Positions 34,552 through 62,669 of a stretch of 64,000 nt of DNA are shown here, in pieces. Position numbers and translations under genes: made by a program. The notes beneath the pieces were generated by a model that worked only from the letters and a program-made list of their open reading frames with translations, was not told the DNA's origin and did not search any database. Location of the stretch: NCBI GenBank assembly GCA_013265495.1, contig MU058198.1, forward strand, positions 1,252,419-1,316,418, read 5' to 3'. Every line of letters begins with the position of its first letter. Position 1 is the stretch's first letter. The stretch is from Vicugna vicugna (lineage: Eukaryota).

Positions 34552-35169
34552 TGCGGGGGGCCACTCATAACCTGAGGACTGCCGAGCACAGAGGTTGGGC
34601 CTAAACTCCCACAGTGCAGGGCGTCAGGCTCTGAGGTTGATTCTAACAAAGACAATCTCTGTCCCGCCACCCCTTTGAAGAATGCACCAGGTGCATTAGA
34701 GCCTGAGGAACATCCTGAGCTATTAAGTCACTAAGGACCTTTGGAAGGAGAGATACAATCGACACACAAGTTAGTGATCTTAGCCTGAAGAACAATCACC
34801 TGAGTGAATAGTACACGAGTCACGATGTTAGCTTAGAGGAACAATACCTTAGTTTATGATCTTGGTTTCGGGAACAGTTAATCTTAGTTTATTGAGAACT
34901 GTAAACAATAATGATGTCTGTAACAATATACAAGTTAATGATTTTAGTACACGATGTTAATGTACCCTAAAACAATACCNNNNNNNNNNNNNNNNNNNNN
35001 NNNNNNNNNNNNNNNNNNNNNNNNNNNNNNNNNNNNNNNNNNNNNNNNNNNNNNNNNNNNNNNNNNNNNNNNNNNNNNNNNNNNNNNNNNNNNNNNNNNN
35101 NNNNNNNNNTCTTTCTTTTTCCTGCAGCACAGGTTTCTGGACCTGATCGATTGTCGGCTGGCTCCGACA
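34552..35169 (+). mobile_element. Young LTR element (class II/betaretrovirus-like by its 6-bp TSD) spanning an assembly gap
   Basis: TG...CA termini; perfect TSD taggag at 34546-34551 and 35170-35175; retains CpGs; host L1 ORF1 resumes after it. Confidence 0.8.
34980..35109. other. Assembly gap (130 N)
   Basis: Run of N. Confidence 1.
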
Positions 35170-40084: not shown

Positions 40085-41823
40085 AGATGCAACATGGATG
40101 ACTGAAGTTTGAGAAACATTAGCATAAGAATGGGGCAAGCTTACAGAGGAGAAGGGAAGGGATGAGGCCAAAATGAAAATCCGAAAGAAAAGACAAGTAG
40201 TGTCATCTTTCCTGAAAAGAAGTAGCCAAGGATCTGTGTGGAAAGCAGCTAACGTAGAGTTGAAGGTATGAGCTTGAGTTCTGTTACTACAGAGGATGCC
40301 CTGCTCACTTTAGTCCTCAGTTTCTCATCTGAGAAATGGGAGTGACCCAACATCTCCACGGGGATGCAGTAGACATTCATGGATATCATGCCAGTGGAAG
40401 GACCTCACAGGGTTCAGGGGAACACCTAAGAAGAGGTTCAAGTTTTAGAGATGTGAGAGTGAGGAACTGAAGTGGGGGCCAAGAGAGTGAATGTGCTCCC
40501 AGCCAGACTGGGCACAGCAAACCAGCTGTGTGAACTCTGATCAGAAGTAACATCTTCTTTAATTTAACTACCCTTAACTAAACTTTCAGTCGACCGAGAG
40601 AGCCAGTCTGCCCACAGATGGAGAAACAGAGGGGAGGAGTAAGCAGGGTGGGATCATTTGCTCAGAAGAGCAGGAGTACTTACAGAATCTAAGATCCAGC
40701 TTTTTGGTAGAGTCATGACTTTTTTTGTTGTTTTTTTTTTTTCTCCACCCACTCATGGGTACCATTCCATTGCCCACATCTCTCCAAGGCCTGGGAACCC
40801 TGAAAAGAAGAGGGTCCTGGGATAAGAGAAACAGAGACCCCTGGGGCTTTGAGCTGGATAGGGAGCCTCTCCCACAATTGGTTTGGAAGGTCCAGATGTC
40901 CCAGGAAGCCCCACAGAGGGTGTGACAGAATGGATATCTGAAACCCGCAATACAGAAAGGGCCCTACAGAGAGTCAGGCTCTCCGCCATAACTTGATATT
41001 ACTAGCTCCCCACGTGGTGTCCAGGACTATTGAGTCAGAGGAAGAGATTATAGAGAATTCGTATCAGCTCTTAAATGCCTTAAGCCAGAAGTGACATGTG
41101 TCACTTCCACCTGGAGTGCATTGTCCAAAATTGGAATTCAATAGCTTCCCCTAACTCCAGAAGAAGCTTGGAAATGAGAGAGACATGCAAGTGGAATCTT
41201 CAGAGAATTCTACTGTATGCCATACACCCATTGTTAGGGTGAGAAAACTGAGGCACAAAGGGATAAGAGAACTGCTCAGTGTCATGGACCTGGTAACTGG
41301 TAAAGGCCAGGCTGAAACCCAGGCTGCTGGCCCCAGCGCCTGTCTTCCGGACCGGAACACTGGTGTTAGTTCCACACGAGAGATTTCTTGAGATCCAGAG
41401 ACTGTCTCATGCACTGTTCCTCCTGTTCCCATTATCTTCTCAAAGGTGACTGCCTCTTCTGTTTGACTAACAGGGTTTCTTGTACTTTATAATCTTTAGC
41501 TTACTGTAGCCAGTCAACTTGCCCTGCCTTCTTACTTGCTCCTCTCCGTAACAGGAGTCTAACCTGAGCTGAAATTTCATCATGAACACATCGGCCAGGA
41601 GGAGCAAGACCCACATCTCGGAAGTCAGGCTTGCCCCTCAGCCCTGGCAGGGGTGTTCTAGTAGTCTCCAGCGATCTTTCATGGTGGCTTTGAGCAGAGG
41701 TATTTTTCTCCCTGGTTCAATGGAGGTTGAGAGGGAAAAGGTGATGGGAAAGTTGGACCAGGATACTGGAGATCCCCCACCTCCTAACCACACCCCAAAT
41801 TGTCTCTAGACATTTTGTTAGAA

Positions 41824-41880
41824 ATACTGTCTATGAAACACTTGGGCTAGGTCTTGGACTGGGACTTTGCACGTTCAGTT
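41824..41880 (-). repeat. 57-bp perfect inverted copy of 42820-42876
   Basis: Base-by-base reverse complement matches 57/57. Confidence 0.95.
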
Positions 41881-42819
41881 GTTAGACAACTAACAAATAG
41901 TTGTTAGAAAACTAACAAGCCACTACCTGTGACATTCCAGGCTTACCTAATGTAGCATCAATCCAGAGTCTACATGCCTGAGCCAGGTGCTTTGCAGACT
42001 GTACATCCTACAGAGCTTTCAAAGATCACATGGAACCAATCTTATTAACAACCACCCACTCCTCCATTTTTCGGATGACAATATCAAAATTAGAAGAGGT
42101 AAATGGCTTGCCACGGGCCACCTTGTAAGTGGCTGTGCCAGGATTCAAGCTCCAGACTTTGGGATTCCAAAGACCGTGCATTGTTCGAGTACACCAAACT
42201 GTTTCTCTTAAAATCCTGAGTTAATAAAACAGCGCACGTGGATTATGTTTGCATTGTGCTATGTACTTTTCATGTATTATTTCATCTAACAGTAATAAAG
42301 ACAGCAACAAAGAACTACCGCCGGAGACAGGTGTCACTGTTATCACTCCCATCTCACAGAGAAGGAAACTGAAGACTAGAAACAGGAGGTCCATGAAGGT
42401 CAAAAAGATGTAATGGCAGACCTGAGGCTTAAGCCCAAAACTCCCCACCCCCACAGCACAGGCTGTAATGACTAGCCAACACTGGCACTTGGCTGTCATT
42501 CAAATGAAAATATTGGACGTACTGGACTGGGGAGGAGGAGCAGGTTAGCCTCAGAGAACTTGCAAAAGTGCTCCATTTGGCTTAATTTATTCATTCACAC
42601 TGCAAGGCATGCCCACAAGAATCGGAGAGTACTTTATAGTTTGTTTTTCGAACTGATTTTTTCTCTCCATGGGAGCTTGTGATTGCTTTCTGCCCTTTTC
42701 TATGTGAGTATCTCCTCCCCCTTTGAATGATTCAATTCCTGCCAGGTTCTCCACCCCCAGCGGTGGCCAGGAACTAAGTCCTGTTATGTGAACACTCCTG
42801 GGAACTTCTGATCAGAGAG

Positions 42820-42885
42820 AACTGAACGTGCAAAGTCCCAGTCCAAGACCTAGCCCAAGTGTTTCATAGACAGTATCAGGTAAGA
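42820..42885 (+). promoter_or_regulatory. Candidate ACSM1 regulatory element or upstream exon end: HNF4-like CGTGCAAAGTCCC followed by strong donor CAG|GTAAGA (42879/42880)
   Basis: CAAAGTCC core fits the HNF4A motif and ACSM genes are liver/kidney expressed; no transcript evidence available. Confidence 0.35.
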
Positions 42886-43184
42886 CAAAGGTGAATGACA
42901 CCTTATTTGGGAGGGAATGTGTGTGTGTGTGTGTGTGTGTATCTGTCACAGGGCAGCAAAGTGTATACAGAGCCTTGAACTTAAAATCTGAAGGCCCAAT
43001 TTCAAATTCTGGCAATGCCACTTACAGACCTTGGGCACGTCTGTTAACTTCTCTGACAGTTCATTTCCTTTACTGCAAAATGAGAATGATGGTACTGAGT
43101 GAGAGGGATTGATGCGAACATAAATGTCATATGCCTAGCACCATGGCTGGCTCATAGGTGATCGACTGAATGTTAGACAGCTCA

Positions 43185-43344
43185 CCAAGTGTGGTGAGAT
43201 GCATTCCAGTTAAACTCACAGTCTCGTTAGTTGAAGAATTCAGAGCAATGTCAACTTGCTACCCCGTGATTAGAACTTAACACTTGATCACAATTACCTG
43301 AGTGTGTACCAGATACTTTTACCTGCTATCTGGTTTCTTAAATG
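43185..43344 (-). repeat. 160-bp inverted copy of 46401-46560
   Basis: Ungapped reverse-complement alignment, 153/160 identical. Confidence 0.95.
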
Positions 43345-44235
43345 TGGTGAGCTGTGCAAGGAGGGTGCTAAGGGGAATAAAAAAGACCCAGAAGATCAAC
43401 ACTGGAAAGAAAACTCCACTCTGCAGAAGTTTGTTCACATTATACAAAAAAAAAAAGTTTTTAATTATCTAATTTGGGGGTTGGCTTCAGAATTTGCTGG
43501 GAGCTAGAGAGCACCTCAACATGTTATTGAGCCCTTATTGTAAAAGTGTCATGTAGATTATCTCACTAATCTTTGTGGAAGCCAGATAGCAGGCATTATG
43601 ACTGTGCCCCCCAAGGTCAGAGGCGTAAATGGTGGCCAGGACCTCTTAGCTGGTAGACAGTGGAGTCGAACCTGGCTCTGTAACACTAGGACCCCCTATA
43701 ACACACTAAGTATGTTGCCTCAGAAGATAAATAGCTTTTCCAGTCCGAATGCTTGTTTGCAGGACCTCTTGGCACTGTGTACCAGTCATGTGGGATTGGG
43801 TCCATCTAATGCCTTCATTTTAACTTAATTACCTCATTAAAGATTCTGTCTCCAAACAGAGTCGCATTTTGGGGTGCTGAAGGTTGGGATTTCAACACAT
43901 GAAATTTGAGGGGACACCATTCAGCCCACAGCAAAGGATTCGCTTCCTCATTATTACTCTTCCTTTCGTTTTGGCTTTTAGCCACTTATTAAAGTGTTGT
44001 GTACGCTCTCCTTGAGTATTTTAAGGAAGATCCTGAGGTTACTTACATGCCTTTGTATAAAAAGAGCAACTGATATTCTTGCTCTAACTCAGCTCATGCC
44101 TGTGGAGGGAGGTATGTGTTGGGAAAAAATAGCAGAGAAGGCAGGCTTTTAGAACCAATTCTGCTACTAAGTTTGTCTTGCAACCTAGGGGAAATTCCTG
44201 TCCCTCTTGGGATGTTGGCCAAATCAAGATTTTTA

Positions 44236-44268
44236 TTTTATTTTATTTTTTTATTTTTTTTTTTTATT
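44236..44268 (-). mobile_element. Poly(A)-only retroinsertion (AATAAA plus A tail) with 15-16 bp TSD
   Basis: caaatcaagattttta at 44220-44235 and 44269-44284 flanks a T-rich tract; minus-strand target reads TTT/AAAAA. Confidence 0.8.
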
Positions 44269-45989
44269 CAAATCAAGATTTTTAAAGTCAAAGATCCCCA
44301 AGGATTGGACAGGTACAGTAAATGGAGAAGCAGGTGGGTGTGACAAAATGAGAAGTGGCAGAAACTATGTCAAATTAGAGAACCTTCCATGTAAATTGAG
44401 CAGACAGTTCTCAGCTCCAGTCAGTTGGTACCAAGTTGAAATGAAACCCCAATGTTGCTGGACCTTCTAAGCTTTCAGGAGAACTCTTCAAGGCTTTTAA
44501 ATAAAATCTCCTAAATTTTAAATGTTGGCAATTCAAAATTTTTCCTCCAAAGACTGAGGGCTAAAGGTAGTATGTCTGAAGACCAGGTTATGGGCCAGCT
44601 AATATCTTAGGATCTTTCTTCCTTCAAGTGCTCTGATAAAACAAAAGACAGTACTGTTGACTGACAGGCACTGAAATGGAAGGGGGCATACTTTAGTTCA
44701 CGTGGCCCAAGGATCCACACTGTCAAGCAGGGACGAAACTAAGGGATGAAACTTTCACATACCTCTCCTCTTTTCTGCAGACAGACAATAGCAGTGTTCT
44801 GAGGACAGCAACAAAATTAACTGGCATTAGGTTACTATGGGTCTAAACAAGTTGAAAATAAATTGAGTCAAGTTTTACCAATCTATTCTACAGGTCTGTT
44901 GTCAGGCAGTATCATCTTACTGCTGAAACTGAGGAGGAGGGAGCTTAATTGTTTACCATGATAAAGTGCTTGAACCTCAAGACTATTTCTGACGTGGCTT
45001 TCTTCCAATTTTCGCAATCAAACTTTAAGAAGGGCCCTAATACATGAGAGTTTCACTCCCAGGTAGAAGCATTTGTTGGGATCTGGAGTGACAAGTTTTA
45101 CTTCATGGGTCAAGTGATAGATCGGTAATCGTTGCCTGGAATGCTGTCCTGGGAAAGACCCTGGTGTCAGACCCCAATCCAGTAGGGAAGTCGCTGTGAT
45201 ATTAGCCTCATCTGTCCTGAGTATGGTTGGGCATATTTGTCAATATTCTTATAGCCCCAAGTGACGGGACCCCAGTCTCAGGCAGGAAAAATTGCTGGCT
45301 CATCGAATTCAGTTCAGGATATTAACAAGAGAAGTGAAGAGGGGCCTCAGGAATAGTATGAACCAGCAAACTGAATGCCTCTGAGATACTCTCTGCTCCT
45401 TATTTCTATGAAAATTTTACACAAACATTTTGGAGAGGGATTATGACTCGCCCAGTTTGGATTTTAAAAAATCTTGGGAAATGACTGCTTGACTCTGGAC
45501 CAATCAACTTTGGACAGGTGGTGGAATCATTTAAAAACTTGACAGTTTCCATGAGAACCACATATTTGGGTTCAGTGGGAAGAGAGACCTCCAGAGCAAG
45601 GGTAGTATGAGATACAGGACTTTCAAAATGGTGAGTTTCTACCAAAATGAGGGCTACATGGCTGCCATCCCGGGGGGTGAGGGAGAACAAGAAGACCCTC
45701 AGGGATGCGTGCCAACCTTATCTAGTAGCTACAGCCCTGCCCCATCATTTTTTTTTTTGCCTTGTGATTCCTCAGTTGAGAAGAGAAATCCCACCTAAAT
45801 CAGTAAGTTGTGCCTTCCAAATTCCAATGAGCTCAAACAAAGCCATCACTCTAGCAATTAACCAGGAATATGCCTTCATTTTGCAGAGGAAACTCCTGCT
45901 CCAGCGATCAACCTATTTGCCATCTCTTCCCAAGGCAGGTGGTGAGCTGAGAATTCTGTGCCTGCTTCCTGAGGACTGCTCCACCCACC

Positions 45990-46181
45990 ATGCAATGGCT
46001 AATGAACTTCCGAGTCCTCCGGGGCATCCTCAAATCCTTCCATGGCTTCCACCCTGCCCCTCAGCGCCTGTGCAGACGGTTTTTATCAGGACCTGGAGAC
46101 CCCAGCTGGAATGACTACGTTAGACCCAAGGAATTTAATTTTGCAAGTGATGTAGTAGATTACTGGGCTCAAATGGAAATG
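45990..46181 (+). CDS. ACSM1: ACSM1 coding exon 1 (acceptor probably caaggcag| ending 45938)
   Basis: MQWLMNFR...[16 protein letters not shown]; donor ATG|gtaagg; 192 nt. Confidence 0.94.
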
Positions 46182-48726
46182 GTAAGGAGGCACCCTTGAT
46201 GGGGGTGGTGAGAACAGGATTTGCTTCACTGGTCTTATCTTGCCCCTTAGAAGACTCAGGGGCACCGAACCAAGAACAGCTTCTGACTGAGCTTGTAAGT
46301 GCCCTGAGAAAAGCTTATGTTTGGGGGTTCAATTCCCAGCTTGGACATTTCCTCAATTCTCTGAGCCCCAGTGGTTTTACCTGTGAAATGGAGATAATTT
46401 CATTTAAGAAACAAGATAGCAGGTGAAAGTATCTGGTACACAGTCAGGTAATTGTGATCAAGTGTTAAGTTCTAATCACAGGGTAGCAAGTTGACGTTGA
46501 TCTGAATTCTTCAACTAACAAGACTGTGAGTTTAACTGGAATGCATCTCACCACACTTGGACTTGACTTCAGGATACATCCACAGGGAGGGGACTCCTGA
46601 TTGTGCACGTGAACACCTGACACATAACTAAGTCATATCATCTGTCTTCCTATGAGGATAGCAAGTGCAGCTGTGGTGCTCCCCATCAGATACAACCATG
46701 AGCGTGGCTTCAGGGTGTGTCCAGGGAATCCAGTCTCTGTGGTCTCTGCTGAAAGACACACATGCTTGGTTTGTCTTTTCCCAAGAGACAGACCACGAGA
46801 GAAGTGGTGACACTAGGATTTGGGATGGACAATGGGTGGTGTTCCAGCTACTAAATTCCAGCAGGTGATGTTCACATCGTGAAAACTCACTCAATGCTGT
46901 CTTTGTACAGAAGACTGAATTCACCTGAGGTGGAGGCAGAGAGTTGATGTATTTTTAATTTCCCATAAACAAACGTTCGTAGGTTAGCATTCGAAGCTTA
47001 TGTGCCTTTCACAGGGACTTCTTCCCTACCTCCTTCTTTTTCCTTTTTCTGAATTTTCATGGTAACTCCAGGGAAAATAGAGCCCTCAGTTAGGAAGAGC
47101 ATTTTTTAATGTGCCATGTTGAGAGCTTTGCATTTAATATTCTGATTAGATGGGCACATTTATTATCCTCACTTTCTAAATGGGGAACCTGAGGTTCCAA
47201 ATGTTCAAAGAACCTACAGAATAAGCCAAACAAGTGAAGAAGCAGGATTTAGGTCCAGGCTGTTGGGTTCTATGATCCTCTGCCTAATCTGGCCTCACAA
47301 TCTGATCATGTCAAAACATTTCTGCCTTCAGACTATAAACTGACTTTCATCACTGCCCATCCCAAAAGTCTGGTTAAGACCTTTTGAATCACAAGGTGGG
47401 CCAGAGAGGGAGGACACAGAGAAGGCGAAGCGATGCCATCACTTTTCTCTGCATTTATCTTCATAAAAAGTCCTACACATAAACCCATGGAGATAATAAC
47501 CGAGTGAACATTTGCCCAGAGAATCCCCCATCTTTGTTAGGTTTTATATCACCTTTTTTTAGTCATTGTCAGTTCCTCCATATCTTCACATTTTTCGTAT
47601 CCCCAGCATCCCCATCTCATTAATGTTCATTCTCACAACACTTCTGACCTGTCTGCTTCTACTTTTCCAATTGTCTTAATGAAGATCAGTGTCTCTCGAG
47701 TGACGTGTGGGCCTGACACTTAGCTGTCCCTTAGTACACTTTTGTGTCATTAATTAATTTTGAAACTTACCTTGTAAGCACAAAAGACCTTCCAGAGGGC
47801 ATGAGTGCTCTCCAGATACCAGAGTCCATGCCGGCTTCCTGTGTGACCCCTTACAACTTAACAAACATCACTGATCCATAGCCTAATGAACAACACAACC
47901 CAGATCATAACAAATTACATAATTTATTTTGACTCCATTTTCAACGCATTACACTTGTAAAACCTTTAAGTTAGAAATCTAACAGTTTACTGTGATTTTT
48001 TTTAAGTGTAAGACAGCCAACACAGGTCCAAGGGTGGAATAGAGTCACTTATTCAGGCCACCAATTTATAACCCCTGACTGTCCTTGGAAATTAAACCTT
48101 ATATCAATTTCTAAGGCCCCTAGGCTCCTAGAATATTACACGTCAGTTGATTCCTGGAGTAGCCTCCCACATCTATTCATGAGAAGTCACATTCATGTCC
48201 AAAATCATTCATTCTGTCTCTTTGATACTTCATTCATTCATTCAGTTAAGATTCAGTGAATACCTAACATGCGCCAAAGCATTGTTCTAGAAAATAGGGG
48301 TAAAAAAGTAAACAACATACAATTCTTCATTTTTCCTCTTTGGACAGTGTGATTCTCCACTTCATGTCCCAGGATAGGTAAGCACAGCATTAAGTGATAT
48401 TAACTTCTGTTTGTTTCGGCAAAAGTCATGACAGAAGCAAATTTGTCCTACCAATGTTGATGCAATTTAGTATTAAAATATTGCTCAATCAGTGTAAATA
48501 TCTACAAACCACAAAGCTTAAGAAAAGCAACAGCTCAATGTCATTGCCACATAACGTCTGGCTCTTTGCTCTATAATATTTCCCAAAAGAAATTGATTTA
48601 TATGCTGACAAACTTTCTAAATTTCTTAATATGCAATAGTCATGTCTGTCTAGATTTTTTTCTGGGCCAGTGGGTCTGTGTTTTGTGGTTCTTGAATTTA
48701 AATCAATCTATCTGTCTGTCTATCTG

Positions 48727-48771
<45 letters not shown>

Positions 48772-51700
48772 ATTTTAGGTTTTTTTCCTGGGTTGTGGGA
48801 AAGGAGATAATTATATTTATTTATTTATTTTTAGAGGAGATACTGGGGATTGAACCCAGGACCTCATGCATGCTAGCATGCTCTCTACCACTTGAGCTAT
48901 ACCCTCCCCTTAAATCTATAATTTTATATAAGTAATCAGTAACAATCCTATTTACTTAGTTAATCCATATGAATTGATACTCAGTAACTGTGTCTCCTAG
49001 TTTGGCATATCATTTGATGAGCCTGTAAGAAGGATACATATTTCTTATCAATGGCAATTTACAAAAGAGTAACATGCCATTTATCATAGTAAGTTATATG
49101 TAAACCACTTTCTTTGTAAGTTAAATTACAATCAATTAGATATGTAGACATATTTAAAATAATTAGTTTGGCTATAATCTACATCCAGCAAATTTAATTA
49201 CTGTCTAATTTAGAAAAAAAATGATAAGTTTTATCTAAAGAAATGAGGTTTCAGGTCTTATATTTAAGTCTTTAATGTATTTTGAGTTTCTTTTCTGATC
49301 TCATCTTTAGTTTTTTAATTGAAGTATGATTGACTCACATAAAAAATAATAAGTGTACAACATAGTTGATTCAATATTTTTATACATTTCAAAATGATCA
49401 CATGATAAGTCTAGTTATCTATCACCATACAAAGCTATTAAAATATTATTGACTACATTCTGTATTCTATATATTATATCCCTGTGACTTACTTATTTTC
49501 TAGCTGTAAGTCTGTGCCCTCTTAGTCCCCTTCACTTATCTCATTCATCCCCCAAGCCTCTCCCCTCTGGCAACTACCAGTTTGTTTTCTGTATCTAGCA
49601 GTCTGTTTGTTTTGTTATTTTTGTTCATTTACTTGTTTTTTAGATTCCACATGTAAGTGAAATTACATGATATTTGCTTTCTCTGTCTGACTATAAGATC
49701 CACTAGTTCTATCCATGTTGTCACAAATGCCAAGACTTCATTCTTTTTAATGGCTCAGCAATATTCCATTTTGATATTAACCCCTAATCAGATACATCTT
49801 TAGCAAATATCTTCTCCTATTCAATAGGCTGCCTTTCTGTTTTGTTGATTGCTTCTTTCACTGTGCAAAAGGTTTTTATTTTGATGTAGTTCCATTTATT
49901 TTTGCTTTTGTTGCCCTTGCCTGAGGAAACAGATCCAAATAAATAGTACAAAGATCAATGTCAAAGAGCATATGCTGCCTATGTTTTCTTCTAGGAGTTT
50001 TAAGATTTCAGGCCTTATATTTAAGTCTTTAATCTGTTTTGAGTTTATTATTGTATATAGTATGAGAAAGTATTCTAGTTTGATTCTTTTGCATAGGGGT
50101 CCAGTTTTCCCAAAATATTTATTGAAGAGGCTGTCTTTTCCCCATTGTATAATCATACCTCTTTGTTGTAGATTAATTAAACATGTTAAGGGTGGGTTTA
50201 TTTCTGAACTCTCTTTTCTTTTCCATTGATCTATATGTCTGTCTGTACCAGTAACATTTTGTTTTGATTACTATGGCTTTGTAGTATAGTTTGAAATCAG
50301 AGAGCAAGATACTTCCAGCTTTGTTCTTTTTTCTCAAGTTTTTTTTTTTTTTTGGCTATTTGAGGTCTTGTGCATTTCCATGCAAATTATAGAAATTTTC
50401 CAAGTTTTGTGGAAAATGCCATTAATGTTTTTATAGTAATTACATTAAATCTGTAGATTGCCTTGGAACTATGGCCACTTTAACAATGTTAATTCCTCCA
50501 ATTCATGAGCTTTCCTTTGTGTTTAATTGATTTTTTTAGTAGTATGCTCTCATTTCTTTTTCACTGCCTTTTGTGTATATTCTGTAGATAATTTTTTGTG
50601 GATACCATAGGGATTACATATAATATTCTAAAGTCATTACAATCTATTTTGAACTAATAAGAACTTAGCTTTATTCACATACAAAACCCTACTTGTTTCC
50701 AGCTTCCTCTCACCTCCCCATGTTATGTTATTGATGTCACAAACTCATCTTTACATATTGTGTACCCATTATAGATTTATAATCAACTGTTTTTATGCTT
50801 TTATCTTTTACATACTGTGAAAGAATAAAAAGTAAACTTATAAACCAGAATTATAATACTAGTTTTTATATTTCTCTGTGTATGTATCTTTATTAAAGAA
50901 TTTTATTTTTGTATTCAAGTTACTCTCTAATGTATTTTTGCTTCAACTTGAACTCCTTTTAGTATTTCTTGTAGAGAAAGTCTAGTGGTAATAAACTCCC
51001 TCAATGTTTTTTGTCTGAGAATGTCTGAATTTCTCCCTCATTTTTGAAGGACAATTTTGCTAGATACACAGTTTCTGGTTGACAATATTTTTCCTTCCCC
51101 ATAACTTTAACTATACAATCCACCTGTCTTCTGGCCTGCAATCCAGTGATAAGCTTATTAAGAATTTCTTATACATGATGAGTCACCCTTCCTCTGCTGC
51201 TTTCAAGATTTTTTCTGTCTTTTATAGTTTGATTGTAATACATCTCTGTGTGGGTGTCTTTGGGTTTTCCTGTTTGGAGTTCGCTGAGCCTCTTGCACTT
51301 ATGTATACATCCCTTTCCTCAAATTTGAGGAGTTTTCAGCCATTAATTATTCAAATAAGTTCTATGTCCCATTTTCTCTCTTTCTTCTCCTTCTAATACT
51401 CCCAGAAAATGTATATTGGTCTGTTTGTTTGTGCCCATAAATTCCTTAGGCTCTGTTCACTTTTCCTCATTTATTTTTCTTTTTGCTCCTCAGACTCAAT
51501 AATTTTAAATAACTTGTCTTCAAGTTTACTGATTCTTTCTTCTTCCCACTCAAGTCTGCTGTTGAGCCCATTTGTGAAGTTTTCAATTCAGTTATTCTAT
51601 TTTTCAGCTCCAGAATCTCTGTTTGGTTCTTTTTAATAATTTGTGTATCTTTGTTGACATTCTCATTTTCTTCATATATCATTTACCTGATTTGCTTAGT

Positions 51701-54700
51701 TCTTTGTGTGTGTTTTCCTTCAGCTGTTCCAACATATATATGATAGTTATTTTAAAATCTTTGTCCAGGACCTGAAGCCTATGTCTCTTTAGGATCAGTT
51801 TCTGGAGATTTATTTTGTTACTTTGAATAGGCTATGTTTCTCCTTTCATTTGTAAGCCTTGTGATCTGTTGTTGAAAATTGAATATTAAAAAAAAAAATC
51901 CAGCTGCTTCTCTCCATCTTTGCAGACTGTCTCCATGGAGGGAAAGACTTTCAGTAATCTGCCCAGTATGAAAACTTAAGGTCTTCTTAGGCCTTGTCTG
52001 GCACGTGTCTTTCCTGGGCCTATACATTTGCTTTTTCCCCTAGTTTTCACATACACATGACTGCTTTTCATATTTTTTTTTAAGTCTCATACCTGCTTCT
52101 TCTTGGGACCTTAGATGTTCTATTATATTCCTCTCTCTGTAGTCTCTTACCATAGGTAACCCCAGGTCTACAGTTTCCACACAGTGTGACAGCTGCCACT
52201 GCTTTTATACAGCTACAACCTGGTATTCAAATGATGTTATCATTCCCATATGAGCTCCAAGTCAAACAAGACAGAAACGAGTTCCTCATGCAGCCTCCAC
52301 TGAAAAAGCCAGATTGTTACAAACAAGTTTCAATATTTCCCATCTATCCCTCAGGAGAGGCTGAGAACTGGGTACCTTCCTCCTGAATTGCACCACAGCA
52401 GAGAGGAGGTGGTGCAAGAGTGAGCAAAACACACCACAAAATGTCTTGCCATTTTGATTGTGTGTTTGCACTGTTTGAACACTTGTTGATTGCTACACAC
52501 CCTTGACTGTTTCTAGAGTTTCAACAAAGCTATCTTAGTCTATTTTTATTTTCTTGATGTTTTTGTGAGGGAACAAGGGCCTGAAGCTTCCTAGTCTGAC
52601 ATCTTGCATCTCTAGAGGTACCTTAATTTTAAAAAACATTTTCCCCAAATGTTCAGGAATTAAATTATCCTCTTTTATTTTGTTGTAATAATAATAACAG
52701 CAATTTTACTGAGCACCTACTGCATGCCAGGCACTGTTATATACACTTTACTTTTAAAAATAACTAATTTAAACTTTATTACTTTCTAGGTAGTATTATT
52801 ATACCCATTTTATAGGTGAGAAAACTGAGGCACAGAGAAACACCTACTGTCCATATGGAACTAAGAGAAACACATGGAGGAATAAAATTTTAAGGCTCTA
52901 ACAGGTGATATGAAGGCTTTTCATGTGATTTGAGAGAAGGGGACTACAGTAGACCAGAAGAAGTCGGCTGGATCACACCTCCCCCCAGTTTCTTTTGGCT
53001 CTACAAATGCTTTAAAATGGGATCTCAGTCCTTGAGCTGTACTCACACTGGAATGTAACTATGTTAGCGGATTGGCCAAATTAGTGCCCCTTTCCTTCAA
53101 AGCAGGAAATAACATGTGATGTTTGATCTTAACCAGGAGGGCAAGAGAGGTCCCAACCCAGCCCTGTGGTGGGTGAATAATCAAGGGGATGAACTGAAGT
53201 GGAGCTTCAGAGAGATAACAGAGTTAACCTGTCGTACGGCGAACGTCTTGACACAGACCTGTGGTCTGCAGGAGGGAGACTATCTAGCCTTGATTCTACC
53301 TCGAGTGCCCGAGTGGTGGCTGGTGGCCATAGGCTGCATCCGAACAGGTCAGTGAGCCCAAGGGACCCCAGTAGACCTTAGGGCTGGCCTCAAGCCAGCT
53401 GGTCCTGAAATACCAGGTACTTTCTCTTCCCTACCTTTTCTCTTCTTAACAGTCTTTCTTTTTCTCAGGCTCTCTCAACTATAATTATACTCATTCTCAT
53501 TCACTCTTTCACTTACACTCACACACTCTCAAATAAGGTCTTAATTCCCTCTCATTTATACACACACACTTTCTCTTGCACGAGCTCAGACATTTTTACC
53601 TTTTTTTTAAAGAGTCATCCATTGTTAACATTTTGCCATGCTTGAGCCCTTCTCCACCAGTGAGTCATTTAAGAATCAGTTGCGGGCATTGTGATACCGC
53701 TGAACACCAGATAAACATGAGAGCACGCATCTGCTAAGATCCAAGACATTCCACTTATAGAACCACAATAGAGTTAACACAGAAGGAGTTTAACACTGAT
53801 GCAATAGAGTTACCTGAGAATCAGCTTCAAGATGGCAGAATAGAAGGATGTGGAGCTCACCTCCTCCCATAGATACATCAAAAATACATCTACATGTGGA
53901 ACAGTGCTCTCAGAATACCTAATGAACTTTGGCAGAAGATCTTGTACAAGTGGAACTACAAGGAAAATCATCACAAAACGGGGTATGAGAGAAAGAAGAA
54001 AAGGAAAAGGAAATTGGGATGGGACCGTCCCTTCAGGGATGGAGTAGTGAAAGAGGAAAGGCACCCTCACTCTGGGGAGCCCTTTCTCCAGTGGGGAGGT
54101 CAGCTGAGCTAGAAGGGGGGCTTCAGAGGCATGGAGGAGGGCACTGGAGCCACTCTGCAGCAGACAGAATGGAGGGAAAATGGCACAGACGGTCCATGCA
54201 GTCCCTAGACTGATGTGCGAACCAGGTGGCGTGTGCCAGGATTGGGTGCTGGAGCTTGGGCTCCAGACAACTGACTCGGTGAGAAGACTGGGGTTAATAG
54301 CACAGAGGCAGCCTCAGGGGCTTCAGTGTGGTATGGGTTGAGGTGGAGAGTTTGTGCAAAAGAGCCTGGGTCTGCCATAGAAAGCCCCACGGTTGGTGCA
54401 CATGACAGGAGGGCCACAACACTGCATGCAGGGTGTGGCTTGGCTGGAAAGTCTCTGTTGTTAACATACTCTCACACAGGGAGGAGAGGGTTGTTGTCAT
54501 AGCAACTGCCTTCACTCACAGGGCATTCCCTGGCCGTAAAGTCCCCACTGTTAACAAGCTCTGTAAGCCCCCATAACAAGTGATAGACAACAGCAGAGAG
54601 TATTCTAACTTCATTGTTTTACACACAGGTTTCCACAATAAATGCTGGAGAGGGTGTGGAGAAAAGGGAACCCTCCTACACTGTTGGTAGTTTGGTGCAG

Positions 54701-57700
54701 CCATTATGGAAAATAGTATGGAGATTGCTCAAAAAAACTAAAAATAGACTTACCATATGATCTAGCAATCCCACTCTTAGGCATACATTCAAAGGGAACT
54801 CTAATTTGAAAAGATACATGCACCCCAATGTTCATAGCAGCACTATTTAAAATAGCCAAGACATGGAAGCAACCTAAATGTCTATTGACAGATGACTGGA
54901 TAAAGAAATTGTGGTATATACACAACGGAATACTACTCAGCCATAAAAAGAATAAAATAATGCCATTTGCAGCAACATGGATGGACCTGGAGATCATCCT
55001 ACTAGGTGAAATAAGCCAGAAAGAGAAAGAAGGATGCCGTATGATATCACATATATGTGGAATCCTAAAAAAAAAAGGACATGAGTGAACTTATTTACAA
55101 AACAGTGACACACTCACAGACATAGAAAACAGACTTATGGTTACCAGAGGGAAAGAGAGTGAGGAGGGACCAGCTGGGAGTTTGGGATTTGTAGATACTA
55201 ACTACTATATATAAAATAGATTAACAAAAAGGTCCTACTGTATAGCACAGAAAACTCTATTCAATACCTCTTAATGGCCTATAATGGAAAATAATATGAA
55301 AATGAATCACTATGCTGTCGACCAGAAATTAACACAACATTGTAAATTGACTTCAATAAAAGTTTAAAAATATAGTTACCTAATATACATTCATAATCAA
55401 AATTCCTCATTGACCCAATGATGTCCTTTATAACATTTTTCTGTTTGAATCAAAAATCCAATTGAGAATCATGCATTGCATTTAGTAGTCCTTTAATCTA
55501 GTATGTGTGTCTAGCCTTTTCTACAAGAGAATGACATTTTTGCCTTGTCTAGGCCAGTTGCTTTGCAGAAGGTGCCTCAAAATTCGCATTTCTGACCCTT
55601 TATTCATGATTACATTCAGGTAAACATTTTTAGCACAAGTACTAGAAGGGTAACATTTCGTCTTTCCCAGTGCATCACATCAGGGATATATGATGTTTGT
55701 TTGTCCCAACATCAGTGATGCTATTTTATCCCTTTAGAAAGGTTGTATCCACCTTGGTAAAGGCACCCCTTTGTAGTTAGTAACAAATCTGTCATGTAAT
55801 ATTTATGAGGCTCCATGAATATCCTGTTCCCCAGCTGTCTTTCCCTTTATGGTTTGAGAATCCGTTGATGAATCTTGACTGAACTGAATATTATAATTGT
55901 AGTTTTATATGAGAACTTTCTATTTATATCATTCCCTCCACACTTACTAGTTGGCATTCTTCTGTAGATAAGTAGATAGATGGCTTATCTATCTACTGAT
56001 CTATGTAATCACTATGGGATTCATGGATTCTTTTTTTTTTAATTACTTCAGTTGTTCTATCATGCACGTTCATACAACAGTCTGTCATGCTCTTGCTCAT
56101 ATAGTCTCTCATCTTCTCTCCCAAATAGTTGTCAAGGTCATATGGAATCAAGAATTAATAGCAATGGTAGAGGGAGTATAGAGGTCCATGTCACTCAGAG
56201 AGTTAATAGATGGCCCATGAGAAATCCAAGACCTGATCTGAGACCCCTGGGATAAGAAGAATTGAAGAGTCAATAGAGGCAAAAGAACAAGATCCCAAGA
56301 ATGGGCATAGCACATGGAAATGCTTAGAGTCAGGAGTAGCCTATATGAAGAATGGACATTTTGAAATAGAGAACAGAATTGTGGGAGGAAAAGGTCGAGA
56401 GTGGGCAGTGCCCTTGATGTCAAGATGGGGAGTGTGGTGTTTTTCTGGAGAGGGGGCACAGGTGTTAGCGAAGGGAAGAAATGTGGAGGGGAAAAAGTCA
56501 CTGCTCTGTGGAACTTAAACAGGTAATAATTTGGAAGGTGGGCAGTAGAAAGATTCAGGACAGGGCATCTGCTGGAGAGAGTAGAATCCAGCAGGGGCAC
56601 CCAGATACCTGAACTCATTGTTGGTGATGGAAGATGGAAGGGAAGCTAGAAAAGTTCAAAGGACAACGTAGTTTACTTTGGGAATGAAGAATGAAGGAGA
56701 GAGGAAATTCAAGATGACACAAGGGACTGACAGAGAAGGTAAGCGAGAGGAGAAAAATGGGGGCAGGGATGTAGCTAGTCCTTGGGTCGGGGACACCATT
56801 TTGCTTGCATCTTTCCCAGATTCTGTGTAAAGTTGTATGAAGTAGGATTCACCTGTCTAGTGGCTAGATCCATCTAGAGTAGAAAAGGCTAGGGCAGGAT
56901 GTTCACATTTCAACGTGCATAGGAATCACTTGGAGATGTCGTTAAAATACAGATTCTGATTCAGTAGGTTTGGGGTGGGGTGTGAAATTCTGCGTCCTAT
57001 GCGGTGCTGATGCTGGTCTGTGGACCACACTTTGCATAGCAAGAGGTTAGGGAATTTCTATGCAGATAAACCAGGTCTGAAGCCCATGGTTGTGACAGAG
57101 AAACCTAAAGAACTTCTTTCTCATCCTTAGGGATCATCTTCATGCCAGGGACCATCCAGATGACGACCAAGGATATTCTCTACCGACTACAAGTCTCTAA
57201 AGCTAAGGGCATCGTGACCACGGATACCCTCGCTCCAGTGGTGGATTCTCTGGCCTCTGAGTATCCTGGTCTGAAAACCAAGCTCCTGGTGTCCGACCAG
57301 AGCTGTAAAGGGTGGCTGGACTTCCGATCATTGATTAAGTGAGTTTCTGGTCTGATGAATGTGTTTTCTGAGGACTAGCAGAAGGCTGTTCAGTCCCAAG
57401 TGCTGGTAGACAAGCAGCCAGTGGGAGGAAGCTGATCAGGTCTAAAGCCTAGAACCTCTTCCGAGCTACATTACTGACCCTGGACTAGTTCCTTATCCTC
57501 TCTTGGCTGTGAATGTTTTATCTGTAAAATCAGAAAATTGAACTTCCATGCCTCTCTCACTAAAACATAATCTGCCCTTGTGCAAAGGAGATGTGTGAAG
57601 TCAGAGGGTTGTAGTGTTGCATCTTCTTTGTAGGTGGGGAATCTGAAATACCATTTTTTATTAAAAAAATATGTGAAGAAGATGAATTTTCAAGGTGAAG

Positions 57701-60700
57701 TGAGATTGAGGGAAAAATTGAGGCTGTGGGAGCCTCAGGCAGCTTTGGGAGCAAACACTTCCCATCTCCTAGGAGGGTGGGTGCCTCTAGGGACAACTTG
57801 AAGGAAGCTAAGGAAGTGTCGACGGTAAGAAAGACCCTCTCCACCGCCAAAACTCTGATTCTGCAAGCCTTCAGTCATTTTTCAAGTCACACACAAACCA
57901 TGCTGGATTTGTTTTCTTGAAGTAACTCCTCAGTTTTTAAAGCTCTCTAAGGCAAATATTACAGTGAAATCATATCTTATGCTAGATTCTAAAGTCAGAG
58001 AATTAAATCAAAGTAGCTTAAATAAAGAATACTCGTTAAAACTCCCCTAAATTGCCTAGAGTCAATACGGTATCATATCTCAGCAAGAACCAGTGTTTCC
58101 TCTAGCACTGATATTATTTGCAGTCGCTCTGATTGAAGACATAGGAAGCTTGCATTTACAGAGACTCAGTCCAGGAGAAGCTCCCAAGAATCAAGGCAGA
58201 CTGAGGAAACTACAAATTCTATCTGTCATCTCCAGCCCATGCCAGGGCAGATGTACATATTTCTTTTACTCTCATTCTCTGTAGCTTTCTCTTCCCCACC
58301 TCTTTCACCAAAGTTATGGGGTCAAATTCCTGTAAATCTAGTTTGTGTAAAAGAACAAGTTTAGCAGCGTGACTAAAAACATAGTGTATGGGTCAGACTG
58401 TCTGAGTTTGAATCCTAGCTCTGCAACTTGCTGGCTATATATCTTTAGGTAAGTTACCTAACCTCTCTGAACCTCAGTTTCCTTATCTGTAAAATGGACA
58501 TAAGAGCAGTACTCACCTCTTAGGGTTGCTCCGAAGATTGAATGAGTTCTTATTAGTAAATCTGGAAACATAGTAAATGCTATTGTAATGTTTGTTAAAT
58601 TAAAAAATAATCCACCATATTTTCCCCATTTTAAAATGAAGAAATATCAGTCCACTGATCCAAGTCACCTATAAACTTTGTCTGATGACTAATACTAGGA
58701 GTTTTTCCTCCAGTATTGCAAACCTCAATTTTCTCCAAGTCTTTTCCAAGTTTCGTATTGTTTCTTTTGCTTCGCCAGAGGATGGAAAAACAGGAAACGT
58801 GACTTCTCTCCTCTTGTATTGAATCCCTTTGCAGATCAGCATCTCCAGATCACGTTTGTATTAAGTCAAAGACCCTGGACCCAATGGCTGTCTTCTTCAC
58901 CAGTGGGACCTCAGGCCTCCCCAAGATGACAAAGCACAGCCATGGACTTGCTTTACGATCCGTCTTACCTTCCTGGTAGGAAAGAGGGTACCAGCTTAGA
59001 GGCTGGGACACAGATCTGGGGTGGAGTGTGTTTGTGTATGTGCTGGGAAAGGAACTCTAAATGGAAATGACCCCATCCTGTTTCTCCTTTCTGATCTCTT
59101 TGGCTCAGACCCCCGATGGCGTGAGAGATGTAGGCTAGGTCTAAGTGTTTGCTGACAGGCACTTGAATGACAAAGGAGGCACATTTGGGTCCCGCCTGAG
59201 CACGTGCACAGGAGGTGTGGAGGAAATGTGGGATCTGCAAACCACACAAACCACAGACCATTGTGTGTTTCAGGGTTTGGTGGGGAAAGATAAGATGTTT
59301 CAGCAATGTGACCTGCAGTGACGGGTCCTCTCCTCTCCTCAACTGTGAACAAATCAGGCTTGGCGTTTACCCAATCATGAGCTGTTAGGAACCTGGAACC
59401 AAGCCACACCAAGCCACTGCCCAGCCTAGAGCAAACCTAGAGGCTGAAGCTGTAGCCATCACGGTTTCCCAAGAAAAAAACATGGTTTATGTTCTCCTGC
59501 CCTTGAGACTTGTCCCAAAATTTCTAACATGTTGTTACTCTGGGACCTGTAGCAACAGGTTCAACCCTGGGAAAGTATCCCACTATTTGAACCCAGGTCT
59601 GTGCAGAAGCCGTAATAACCCTTCATTTGATTATTTGGTTTTAGACGAAGTTGTATAGGCTTGTTCCTCACAGAGCCCTGGTTCAAATCGACTTTCGATG
59701 TTTTTTAAAAAAAATATATTGCTGACACCTGGTTTACATGTAAAAGAAAGAAAGCAATTTTAAACCAAAGTCTTATCCCTTCTCCCCTATCCCCAAGAAA
59801 TAATATTCAAACCAGACCAAGTTCTATATATTTTTTAACTTATTAATTAGACCAGGGAACAGAGAAGGCTTTTTGTAGACAGTATTTATGCTAATGATAA
59901 CAACTGAGTGGCAAAACCCTGGAGGAATGGGGCTGGAGAGAAGGGCATTTGTGTAGCCAGAATAGCATCTGAGGCCACTGTATTTTGGAGTTAGCAGGAA
60001 ATTTCTGAAGCTGAAGACGTCTGATGTCTTCTGGTGCCCGTCAGACACAGGCTGGATTATGTCTATGGTGGGGTCTCTGCTTGAACCATGGACAGCAGGG
60101 TCTACAGTCTTTGTCCATCATCTGACCCAGTTTGACCCCAAGGACATGATACAGGTAAGAAGACTAACCTTTTAATATCAACAAACTCCAGGAAGAAACT
60201 CATTTTCAAGTTCAAAAGCTAGATCCAGCTGAGAAAGATTTTATTTAGCAAAGAAGTGTATTAGCATAATATAACTCTAGTTCTGGGTTTCCCAAATTGT
60301 GAAGCACTGAATCAGTCACTGTTACCAGAATTACATTAAGATGCAACCTTGAAGAAAATACATATTCCCATCCAAGTATAAGCCAGGCCCGAGCCTGCTT
60401 AGCTTCAGAGATCAGACAAGATCGGGAGCATTCAGGGTGGTGTGGCCATAGACAAGAAAGCACATATTCCAGACCTTTCCTCAGACCTATGGATTGGACT
60501 TGGTGGACTCAGGAACTGGAATATATATTTTAAGAAGTTAAAGCAACCAGAGCAAGCTCAGGTCTTCTGGATTCTGGACCCTGGCTCTAGAAGGGCCAGG
60601 GAGCTCACGTGTGTACGTGTGTGTGTGTGGTTACTCAATCTAATGATGTGATTAGAAACAGAGCCCTTGCAAAATGACAGCTCTAGCTTCTTATCCCACG

Positions 60701-62669
60701 TTTTAACATTTATTAGTGGTTTAAACTTACCATTCTGAGCTTCAGTTTTCCTTATTAGTAAAACGGGAGTTTTAATGGTTACAACCTCTACAAATTGTTG
60801 GGAATATTAATGAGATGATACAGGAAAAGTGTGTGCAGTTTTCAGCCCTGAAACTGGAACACAGACAACACTCAGTAAGTGTTAGCAGTTGCTGTTATGC
60901 ACACAGCATGATAAGTGAGGTCACCCTCATGAACTCCTGCGACATATTTCTCTTCACCTGAGAATTGTGTCTTTGTGTCTCCACTCACTCCTCTGCTTTC
61001 CATCTCAGAGACAGACCTTCCCCTTCACCTCTCAAAGTCCAACTCCCTCCTGACAATTGATGTGGATTGTGTTCTTTCCCTGCCCTTCTGTTCGGAGACC
61101 CTTTCTATTAATCTTTAATCCATTAAACCTTCTCTCCTGTATTTTCAATCTCTCCCTTTTCATTAACTCCACTCCCTCAAGCCATAAACACATCCAAATT
61201 CCCCATCCTAAAAATACCTCCTCTTCACTCCGGTACACATTGGACCAACCCCATCTTTCCTCCCTTAATATCAAACTTCTCCATAGAACATTTTCAACGC
61301 ACCACAGCCACCTCCTCTTCACCCAGCTTACTCCTGAACACTGTCATCCTCCAAGGGTCTGCCATCAACCTCCCTTCCCTTCCAAACATTTCTTTCACTT
61401 CCATTTCTCCAGGAGGCACATCTGTTCAGGTGGCTCTCAAAACTGTACCCTGAGTCTACCAGACTAATTCTCCCATGTTTGTCTGCTGGTTGATTATGTC
61501 CGTCTGACCATCCCTCCAACACCTGAAACTGCACCTCTCATTTCTCATTCCCTGCCCCGATATTAATATTTGCCTCTCCATCATTTTCTGCTCACATCCT
61601 GTCAGCCCCAGAAGCATAAATCTGCAGGAACAACATGGACTCCACCTCTCCCCTCCCCCCACCAGGTCTAATTCTCCTTCCCCTTCAAGGGATCTTCCAA
61701 AAGGCTCAGTGTGTTTTAAGCTTGAATTATTTCGTAGTATTAATTCTACAGATCTACCAAAACCCCAGCATTTGAAAGTTTAATGATTCTGATTTATTTC
61801 CTACTTGTTATTTTTATGAATGTTTTGCAATAAACTTTTTTTAATTGAAGTACAGTCGGTTACAATGTGTCAGTTTCTGGTGTACAGCACAATGTCCCAG
61901 TCATGCTTATACATACATGCATTTGTTTTCATATTCTTTTTCATTAAAGGCCATTGCAAGATATTGAATATAGTTCCCTGTGCTATACAGAAGAAACTTG
62001 GTTTTTTTTTAAATCTATTTTTATATATATAGTGGCTAACATCTGCAGATCTCAAACTCCCAAATTTATCCTTTCCCACCCCTTTCCCCCGGTAACCGTA
62101 AGATTGTTTACTATGAATCTGTTTCTGTTTTATAGATGAGTGCATTAGTACCCTTTTTTATTTATTTTTTTTAGATTCCACATATGAGTAATATCATATG
62201 GTATTTTCCTTTCTCTTTCTGGCTTACTTTTAAACAATAATGTAACAAACTTTCAAATTTACTTGGTTTCAGTCCCTCTTATTGAAGATGGGAGATAGTG
62301 ACCGGTAAGAATGGTAAATTAAAAATTTACTATTTAGATTCACAAAACAAAACTTTCTCTCCATTTCTTCTCTGCCCACCCCCTCAACTTAGACTTTCTT
62401 GCTTCTCCCCTAACAGTACCTGACACATGCTGTGTACAAAATTCATGCTCAATTTAGGAACACTGAAGGAATTAACAAATGAATAAGTGGGCTCTCCTAG
62501 AGGGGAGATCAGAACTAAAGTGTTAATAATAGATTGATATTTTAAATTTTAACTGTAAAACTAAAATTTCTTCTCTTCTCACTTCCTAGACATTATTCAA
62601 ATACCCCATTACCTACTTCCTTGCTGCACCCTCTGTGTTTCGAATGATTCTGCAGCAGAATCCCACCAG
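45990..62669 (+). CDS. ACSM1: Acyl-CoA synthetase medium-chain family member 1, mitochondrial; 5' part only, join(45990..46181,53137..53347,57131..57338,58835..58975,59995..60154,62590..62669), continues beyond the window
   Basis: ccaccATG Kozak context; [24 protein letters not shown]..., [25 protein letters not shown] and LKTSDVFWC match recalled ACSM1; six exons in frame with GT-AG introns; exon sizes 192/211/208/141/160/80 parallel ACSM2. Confidence 0.94.
48706..48772. repeat. (TATC/TGTC)n microsatellite at a SINE tail
   Basis: Direct reading. Confidence 0.9.
48773..48909 (-). mobile_element. tRNA-derived SINE (camelid Vic-1 type)
   Basis: Minus strand ggggagggtatagctcaagtggtagagagcatgctagcatgcatgaggtcctgggttcaatccccagtatctcc (A and B boxes). 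Confidence 0.88.
49310..52606 (-). mobile_element. L1 remnants: 3' UTR/ORF2 pieces (49310-50510) and 5' end/ORF1 (50510-52606)
   Basis: ORF2-like [24 protein letters not shown]1-like [18 protein letters not shown]; 5' end caagatgtcagact on the minus strand; may be one or two elements. Confidence 0.75.
53137..53347 (+). CDS. ACSM1: ACSM1 coding exon 2
   Basis: aaccag|[18 protein letters not shown]...VAIGCIRTG; donor G|gtcagt; 211 nt. Confidence 0.95.
53816..55368 (+). mobile_element. 1.55-kb L1 derivative: 5' UTR + short inverted ORF2 piece + ORF2 end/3' UTR, with TSD
   Basis: 5' cttcaagatggcagaatag; inverted piece about 54598-54632 (CKTMKLEYS on the minus strand); [21 protein letters not shown] aata(g/t)agttacct at 53803-53815 and 55369-55381. 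Confidence 0.85.
56900..57045. mobile_element. MER5A (hAT-Charlie)
   Basis: gaatcacttggagatgtcgttaaaatacagattctgattcagtaggtttgggg...tgtggaccacactttgcatagcaag. Confidence 0.75.
57131..57338 (+). CDS. ACSM1: ACSM1 coding exon 3
   Basis: ccttag|[25 protein letters not shown]...[10 protein letters not shown]; donor AA|gtgagt; 208 nt. Confidence 0.95.
58835..58975 (+). CDS. ACSM1: ACSM1 coding exon 4 (P-loop)
   Basis: ttgcag|[52 protein letters not shown]; donor TG|gtagga; 141 nt. Confidence 0.94.
59995..60154 (+). CDS. ACSM1: ACSM1 coding exon 5 (tandem NAGNAG acceptor; alternative start 59998)
   Basis: ttag|[27 protein letters not shown]...FDPKDMIQ; donor CAG|gtaaga; 160 nt. Confidence 0.92.
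60366..60453 (-). pseudogene. 5S rRNA pseudogene, 3'-truncated (nt 1-88), tailless, with TSD
   Basis: Minus strand gtctatggccacaccaccctgaatgctcccgatcttgtctgatctctgaagctaagcagg...tacttggatggga; TSD aagaaa(at/gc)acatattcc at 60352-60368 and 60454-60470. Confidence 0.93.
61836..62229 (-). mobile_element. 5'-truncated L1 3' UTR (same family as 8966-9350)
   Basis: ttaattgaagtacagtcggttacaatg...gatattgaatatagttccctgtgctata...ctttctggcttactt. Confidence 0.85.
62590..62669 (+). CDS. ACSM1: ACSM1 coding exon 6
   Basis: tcctag|[32 protein letters not shown]; donor AG|gtatgg; 80 nt. Confidence 0.93.

Follow-up and report, generated by a model that had tools for sequence, protein, structure and literature searches.

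What this locus raises is the question of how a short stretch of non-coding DNA upstream of the vicuña ACSM1 gene came to be present twice within 1 kb, in opposite orientations and without a single difference, and why one of the two copies runs into a stack of small AT-rich hairpins. We ask whether the insert is real, which copy is the new one, and what kind of event could have made it. The affected segment (41815–41918) is referred to as the patch, and the whole 64,000-nucleotide stretch of Vicugna vicugna DNA that was analysed (contig MU058198.1, positions 1,252,419 to 1,316,418) as the window; all coordinates are those of the window.

The patch and its surroundings

The window has the character of mammalian non-coding DNA (GC about 43%) and carries two tandem ACSM-family genes transcribed on the forward strand, recognized in Pfam and PDB searches. 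These are an ACSM2-like gene at 592–21460, which the PDB search places nearer to human ACSM2A, followed by ACSM1 at 45939–62667, which extends past the window edge. The start-codon exon of ACSM1 (45939–46181, forward strand, ATG at 45990) is placed by protein matches and, at the acceptor (45939), by its motif; over 64 residues it differs from two alpaca ACSM1 proteins at one and two positions, and from the dromedary protein at four, which makes a New World camelid the likely source of the window. The patch lies 4.1 kb upstream of this exon, and the donor of the copied segment 3.06 kb upstream. No Pfam family was found at patch or donor among 144 reading frames of at least 78 aa from the whole window and 86 frames of 45–77 aa from the interval 37–50 kb, and a coding role of the patch was rejected; elsewhere the same scan returned AMP-binding at the two ACSM genes and three weak hits below the cut-off. 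Rfam gave no family at patch or donor, its only hit being a tRNA-like SINE head at 48835–48906. This hit comes from the first of two related tRNA-headed SINE copies, at 48803–48908 and 6286–6396, which are 83% alike. A 20-base donor motif had 0 matches among metagenome contigs, and the literature searched, made up of main texts with few of the subscription journals, held nothing relevant on the camelid ACSM1 locus or its exon 1 and exon structure. Two other features of the window are recorded here. A 33-nt T-rich tract between two identical 16-mers (44220–44284) resembles a bare poly(A) tail inserted in LINE-1 fashion on the minus strand, complete with a target-site duplication, and the longest perfect hairpin of the window (11 bp, 5-nt loop) is in an ACSM1 intron at 55971–55997.

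The segment 41824–41880, read on the minus strand, is, as the initial annotation had stated, an exact copy of the 57 nt at 42820–42876 on the forward strand, 939 nt away; the match has sharp ends. It is the longest exact inverted match in the window outside the N gap, and the longest such matches in 20 order-3 Markov simulations of the window measure 15–24 nt. The copy has 1 nt in common with the left flank and 2 nt in common with the piece that follows it. The hairpins described at 41879–41896 and 41901–41918 are both present, as is the 10-mer that brackets the insert on the forward strand; its left copy (41815–41824) comprises the left hairpin arm and three loop bases and is the presumed exit point of synthesis, and its right copy (41901–41910) is the presumed point of return to the original template. 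Deleting the 86 nt from 41825 to 41910 leaves a single hairpin with a 7-bp stem and a 4-nt loop, again as described.

The AT-rich tail (41877–41918) is made of 1.9 copies of a 22-nt unit (Tandem Repeats Finder) and contains five overlapping hairpins of 6–7 bp: the two above and a further three at 41877–41891 (6 bp), 41886–41904 (7 bp) and 41890–41907 (7 bp). None of 200 shuffles folds as well as the hairpin pair (z −4.0), and the AT content of the tail is 73% against 53% in the flanks, a comparison that involves only 30 nt of tail. Fold-back copying via the hairpin at 41877–41891 would account for the C in the first hairpin loop. All of the junction debris is confined to 41815–41918, with none at the donor, which has no flanking repeats, which marks the copy in 41815–41918 as probably the new one. 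Two shorter matches were also seen: the 7-mer at 41816–41822 precedes the left junctions of both the patch and a larger sister insert described below, and the 9 nt at 41880–41888 recur at 43171–43179, which may be chance.

Read depth in a second library and a sister insert

Reads crossing the patch, the check that the initial annotation had proposed, were sought in one 2026 Illumina run from a close camelid (run X2), about 2/100 of which was used. Twenty-eight reads of 151 nt were placed on 40800–42800 at a depth of 1–3, and since calls of joints, indels and loose ends need 3 reads, the depth table is the part of the output usable here; depth in 67-nt bins was converted to base counts, and crossing reads were deduced from these rather than displayed singly. 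On the minus track the counts (47+67+37 = 151) have a single solution, a full read at 41758–41908 that spans the left junction, the entire copy and 28 nt of the tail. On the plus track there are 5107 solutions of up to 4 pieces altogether, the smallest of which consist of a full read at 41769–41919 together with two donor-derived partial reads. An insert-free allele gives 0 solutions on either track as long as the pieces are full-length, donor-derived or chimeric with their ends at restriction sites; if chimeric ends may fall anywhere, 66 three-piece solutions exist for it, on the minus track only.

The animal behind X2 belongs to the species of the window or to one closely related, since 12 of the 28 reads are at least 99% alike to the window, which would be unlikely at a divergence of 2% (P 0.004) or 3% (P 1.5e-8). 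It is probably a different animal, because three positions (42447 and 42464–42465, including a swap of two adjacent bases) differ from the window in 4 of 4 reads, unless these differences are errors in the window. An assembly artefact, for example a chimeric or fold-back library molecule, would explain both the exact identity and the stacked hairpins, which are typical of library chimeras, and the window does contain an assembly gap of 130 N at 34980–35109, while neither of the two runs listed under a Hi-C filter, X2 among them, was marked as containing the stretch; however, the X2 depth, from what is probably another animal, fits two insert-carrying reads across the patch and no insert-free allele, so that an artefact is highly improbable and the insert, judged by read depth, is almost certainly real. 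The suggestion that it might be polymorphic gained no support, as 2 of the 2 inferred crossing reads in X2, at a depth of 1–2 there, carry it.

The sister insert (43177–43355) is a 160-nt inverted copy (43185–43344) of 46401–46560, with 11-bp inverted arms and a 9-nt direct repeat, and removing 43199–43351 from it leaves a hairpin with an 11-bp stem and a 4-nt loop. At its right junction (43344–43354) it has the same 11 bases with which the ACSM1 start-codon exon opens (45939–45949), a match with a rough chance of about 0.1. Because the two copies of the sister flank that exon, a transcript could loop it out. The sister copy differs from its donor at 7 of 160 positions, 3 of them at CpG. That the patch is the younger of the two, as had been proposed, is plausible and unproven: comparison of 0/57 with 7/160 differences gives a Fisher p of 0.19, and the chance of 0/57 at the sister's rate is 0.078. 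The absence of differences sets a 95% upper bound of 5.1% on divergence, with the probability of identity over 57 nt being 0.56 at 1% divergence and 0.18 at 3%. Patch and sister may also derive from a single joint event.

Probable template switching and other origins

The insert was decomposed with a minimal template-switch parse, a scheme of our own with arbitrary costs. The 30-nt tail parses wholly into local templates at a cost of 7, against a mean of 21.5 and a minimum of 9.5 for 60 shuffled tails. If the hairpin existed beforehand, the whole insert resolves into 7 segments with 0 untemplated bases; if the right arm is new it resolves into 9 segments, with 0 untemplated bases at a minimum span of 5 nt and 2 at a span of 6 nt. 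An ancestral state with a new left arm needs 1–6 untemplated bases and was disfavoured. Junction homology amounts to 1 nt into the donor, 2 nt out of it, 1–4 nt within the tail and at least 4 nt at the final return, with the 1- and 2-nt values being near chance level.

Most likely the patch arose by accident during germline copying or repair, when a 3′ end that had stalled or broken changed template several times, and there is a good probability that a single such accident produced it, beginning with a long template jump and going on to short fold-back cycles. The sequence relations and the templated parse are what the window shows; the order of steps proposed from here on is an inference. Synthesis would have halted at 41824, once the left arm and some of the loop had been made; the free end, paired by 1 nt of homology with the opposite strand at 42876, would have primed there and copied 56 nt. 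The end would then have been released and re-annealed at the left arm by 2 nt, after which a few steps of 2–8 nt, either by fold-back on the new strand or by re-copying of the arms, would have generated the extra hairpin; re-annealing at the left arm with at least 4 matched bases would have allowed synthesis to continue. Read in the other direction, the same product would come from a right end that had been resected by 1 kb and had then folded back. Judged by sequence, the long jump looks like replicative template switching of the MMBIR/FoSTeS type, and the tail looks like stem-loop extension by polymerase theta. The initial annotation had proposed a templated insertion by repeated cycles of priming, extension and release during end joining. 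The cycles are supported, with the tail consisting entirely of local templates, unlike its shuffles, and the X2 depth fitting the insert allele; of end joining in the narrow polymerase-theta sense, the tail fits and the 56-nt tract from 0.94 kb does not. The patch itself is probably neutral and without function.

Whether the hairpin attracted this event or was left by it is a more even question. The window contains 32 perfect hairpins with stems of at least 7 bp and loops of 3–6 nt, five of which belong to patch and sister, and a random point falls in or beside such a loop in about 0.3% of cases; against that background chance does not account for the association of hairpin and insert. By the parse, a hairpin that was there beforehand has a slight advantage. 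In the sister, however, the donor itself already holds the loop and some of the stem, an indication that such arms are products of repair, and perfect stems are reported to arise in one step through template switching (PMC8794818). On balance a by-product of repair is somewhat the likelier of the two. Two inserts 1.3 kb apart, each with inverted arms and a reverse copy from downstream, offer a modest means of telling hairpins that draw breaks from hairpins that repair leaves behind.

Among other origins, two separate mutations at a pre-existing hairpin, namely a slippage duplication of the 22-nt unit and an earlier or later inverted capture of 56 nt, would agree with the clean 1.9-copy tandem repeat of the tail. 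Direct duplications at pre-existing quasi-palindromes are the commonest class in PMC8421209 (42 and 47 calls), and indels are enriched about 2-fold in the spacers of short inverted repeats (PMC5737083). This account requires two rare hits at one spot, however, and both the C in the first loop and the segment 41898–41904 are explained by fold-back through hairpins 41877–41891 and 41886–41904; because these templates include the end of the donor copy, the tail is tied to the copy, and we regard two independent mutations as unlikely. The copies might instead be old and held identical by function, as a binding site for HNF4 or as an RNA duplex, or by gene conversion. The copy carries at 41862–41869 (minus strand; 42831–42838 in the donor) a putative HNF4 site agreeing with 8 of the 9 bases of the HNF4-specific motif in PMC3384313, where the paralogue ACSM2B appears as a putative target; the arms would pair across all 57 nt in a shared transcript, which follows trivially from their complementarity, and 0/57 differences are compatible with as much as 5.1% divergence. 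Against this, the final base of the 9-mer is missing from the motif, three perfect 9-mers occur elsewhere in the window, identity over 57 nt requires no selection at a divergence of a few percent, and the junction debris resembles a repair scar, leaving maintenance by selection or conversion very doubtful. A LINE-1-mediated insertion would take the 10-nt direct repeat that brackets the insert as its target-site duplication, but there is no poly(A) tail, the repeat lacks at its start, on either strand, the A-run of a LINE-1 cut site, and the tail is made of fold-back copies. With tail and cut site missing, this origin was rejected as extremely improbable.

A more elaborate proposal is that the patch was templated by RNA, being a reverse transcript of ACSM1 sense RNA and possibly of the greater part of a short, non-coding exon 1 with 42879 as its splice-donor-like end. 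Next to the donor on the forward strand is a strong candidate splice-donor-like motif (42877–42885, 8 of 9 consensus positions), 3 nt inside which the copy begins, and the neighbourhood includes the HNF4-like motif at 42831 and, at 42581, a half match to the HNF1 pattern; one might guess from such motifs that the donor is the ACSM1 promoter or first exon. Patch and sister copies are both antisense to ACSM1, the right junction of the sister coincides with the first 11 bases of the start-codon exon, and RNA-derived templated insertions have been described (PMC5110952). The copy, however, shows neither a splice junction nor poly(A), and its inverted orientation is predicted equally by DNA fold-back. 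Germline transcription of ACSM1 would also be needed, and ACSM1 is expressed mainly in liver and kidney. Donor-like sites scoring at least 8 number 30 on the forward strand of the window, equal to or better than the one at 42877, with 11 of them between coding exons of the two ACSM genes, and the 11-nt match of the sister has its rough chance of 0.1. An RNA template for the patch is accordingly quite unlikely. The fuller version is very improbable; in it the ACSM1 5′ region would have been patched twice, 1.3 kb apart, from its own sense RNA, the patch approximating a first-exon reverse transcript and the sister carrying intron sequence together with the opening 11 bases of the exon that follows. 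If true, local break repair from an RNA template would have left a natural record in a mammalian germline, and an HNF4-like promoter site would have been duplicated as well. The preferred reading remains a DNA-templated accident of repeated switching, and the patch would gain greater importance only if the donor turned out to be promoter or first exon of ACSM1, with the copy either altering expression or deriving from RNA.

Comparison with known templated insertions

In the following comparisons each known system is taken as it is described in the reports cited. The complex germline insertions called MMB-TI, microhomology-mediated templated insertions which are linked to MMBIR (PMC8421209), resemble the patch in having an inverted template nearby on the same chromosome, junction homology of 1–2 nt, several templates per insertion, and the form of a germline variant without larger rearrangement. 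Such multi-template germline insertions are common in people, with dozens per person: in the same source, 33 of the 103 calls curated for one individual and 26 of the 99 for another are of this kind. The patch departs from them in that its main template is 939 nt away, whereas MMBSearch has a limit of 100 bp (the tail is within it), and in that its tail is built from nearly identical cycles around a single 7-bp hairpin.

The templated insertions of polymerase theta (TINS) and snap-back SD-MMEJ (PMC5728401, PMC7165422, PMC11541566, PMC4032859, PMC11292364) share with the patch iterative rounds, weak first but longer final homology, hairpins made by fold-back, and short AT-rich tracts for which the flanks served as templates in either orientation. 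Theta inserts are reported to have AT-rich tracts with weak first and longer last homology (PMC7165422), theta extends stem-loops from two terminal pairs (PMC11292364), and snap-back synthesis converts inserts to longer inverted repeats (PMC5728401). The flank-templated part of the tail (41881–41910) agrees with theta norms in its templating, in tract length and template distance (mostly under 10 nt, from within about 20–50 nt of the break) and in AT content. With 56 nt taken in one tract from about 1 kb away, the main copy exceeds the usual length and distance: theta primary tracts are rarely longer than 10 bp (PMC7165422), and theta templates peak within 20 bp of the break (PMC11541566). An account by theta alone therefore fits badly with a 56-nt tract from 0.94 kb, and the jump fits replicative template switching better.

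Class 2 templated sequence insertion polymorphisms (TSIPs; PMC5110952) are similar in being short patches with an intact donor, no poly(A) and end-joining-like junctions; the patch is unlike them in having a local donor (939 nt) rather than a distant one, and in being bracketed by a 10-nt repeat where class 2 has no target-site duplication. Class 2 TSIPs are also presence/absence polymorphisms with an RNA-derived template. The poly(A) tail and TTTT/A cut site of class 1 TSIPs in the same source are absent from the patch; the 10-mer might stand for their target-site duplication of at least 5 bp, but it is also part of the hairpin repeat. The four-point model of short-range template switching (bioRxiv 10.1101/2021.11.26.470150; PMC8794818) agrees in its reverse-complement copying, in producing perfect hairpins in one event, and in that its events can be chained; its templates adjoin the site, whereas the main jump of the patch covers about 1 kb.

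If it should prove restricted to a lineage, the patch would serve as a homoplasy-free marker for camelid phylogeny. As a mutation it is another natural example of a well-described process, and as read here it preserves cleanly a template jump of 1 kb and the short fold-back cycles after it. It is a locally templated insertion of a broadly known kind, and strictly neither an MMB-TI nor a theta TINS, because it exceeds the 100-bp range of the former and the tract-length norm of the latter.
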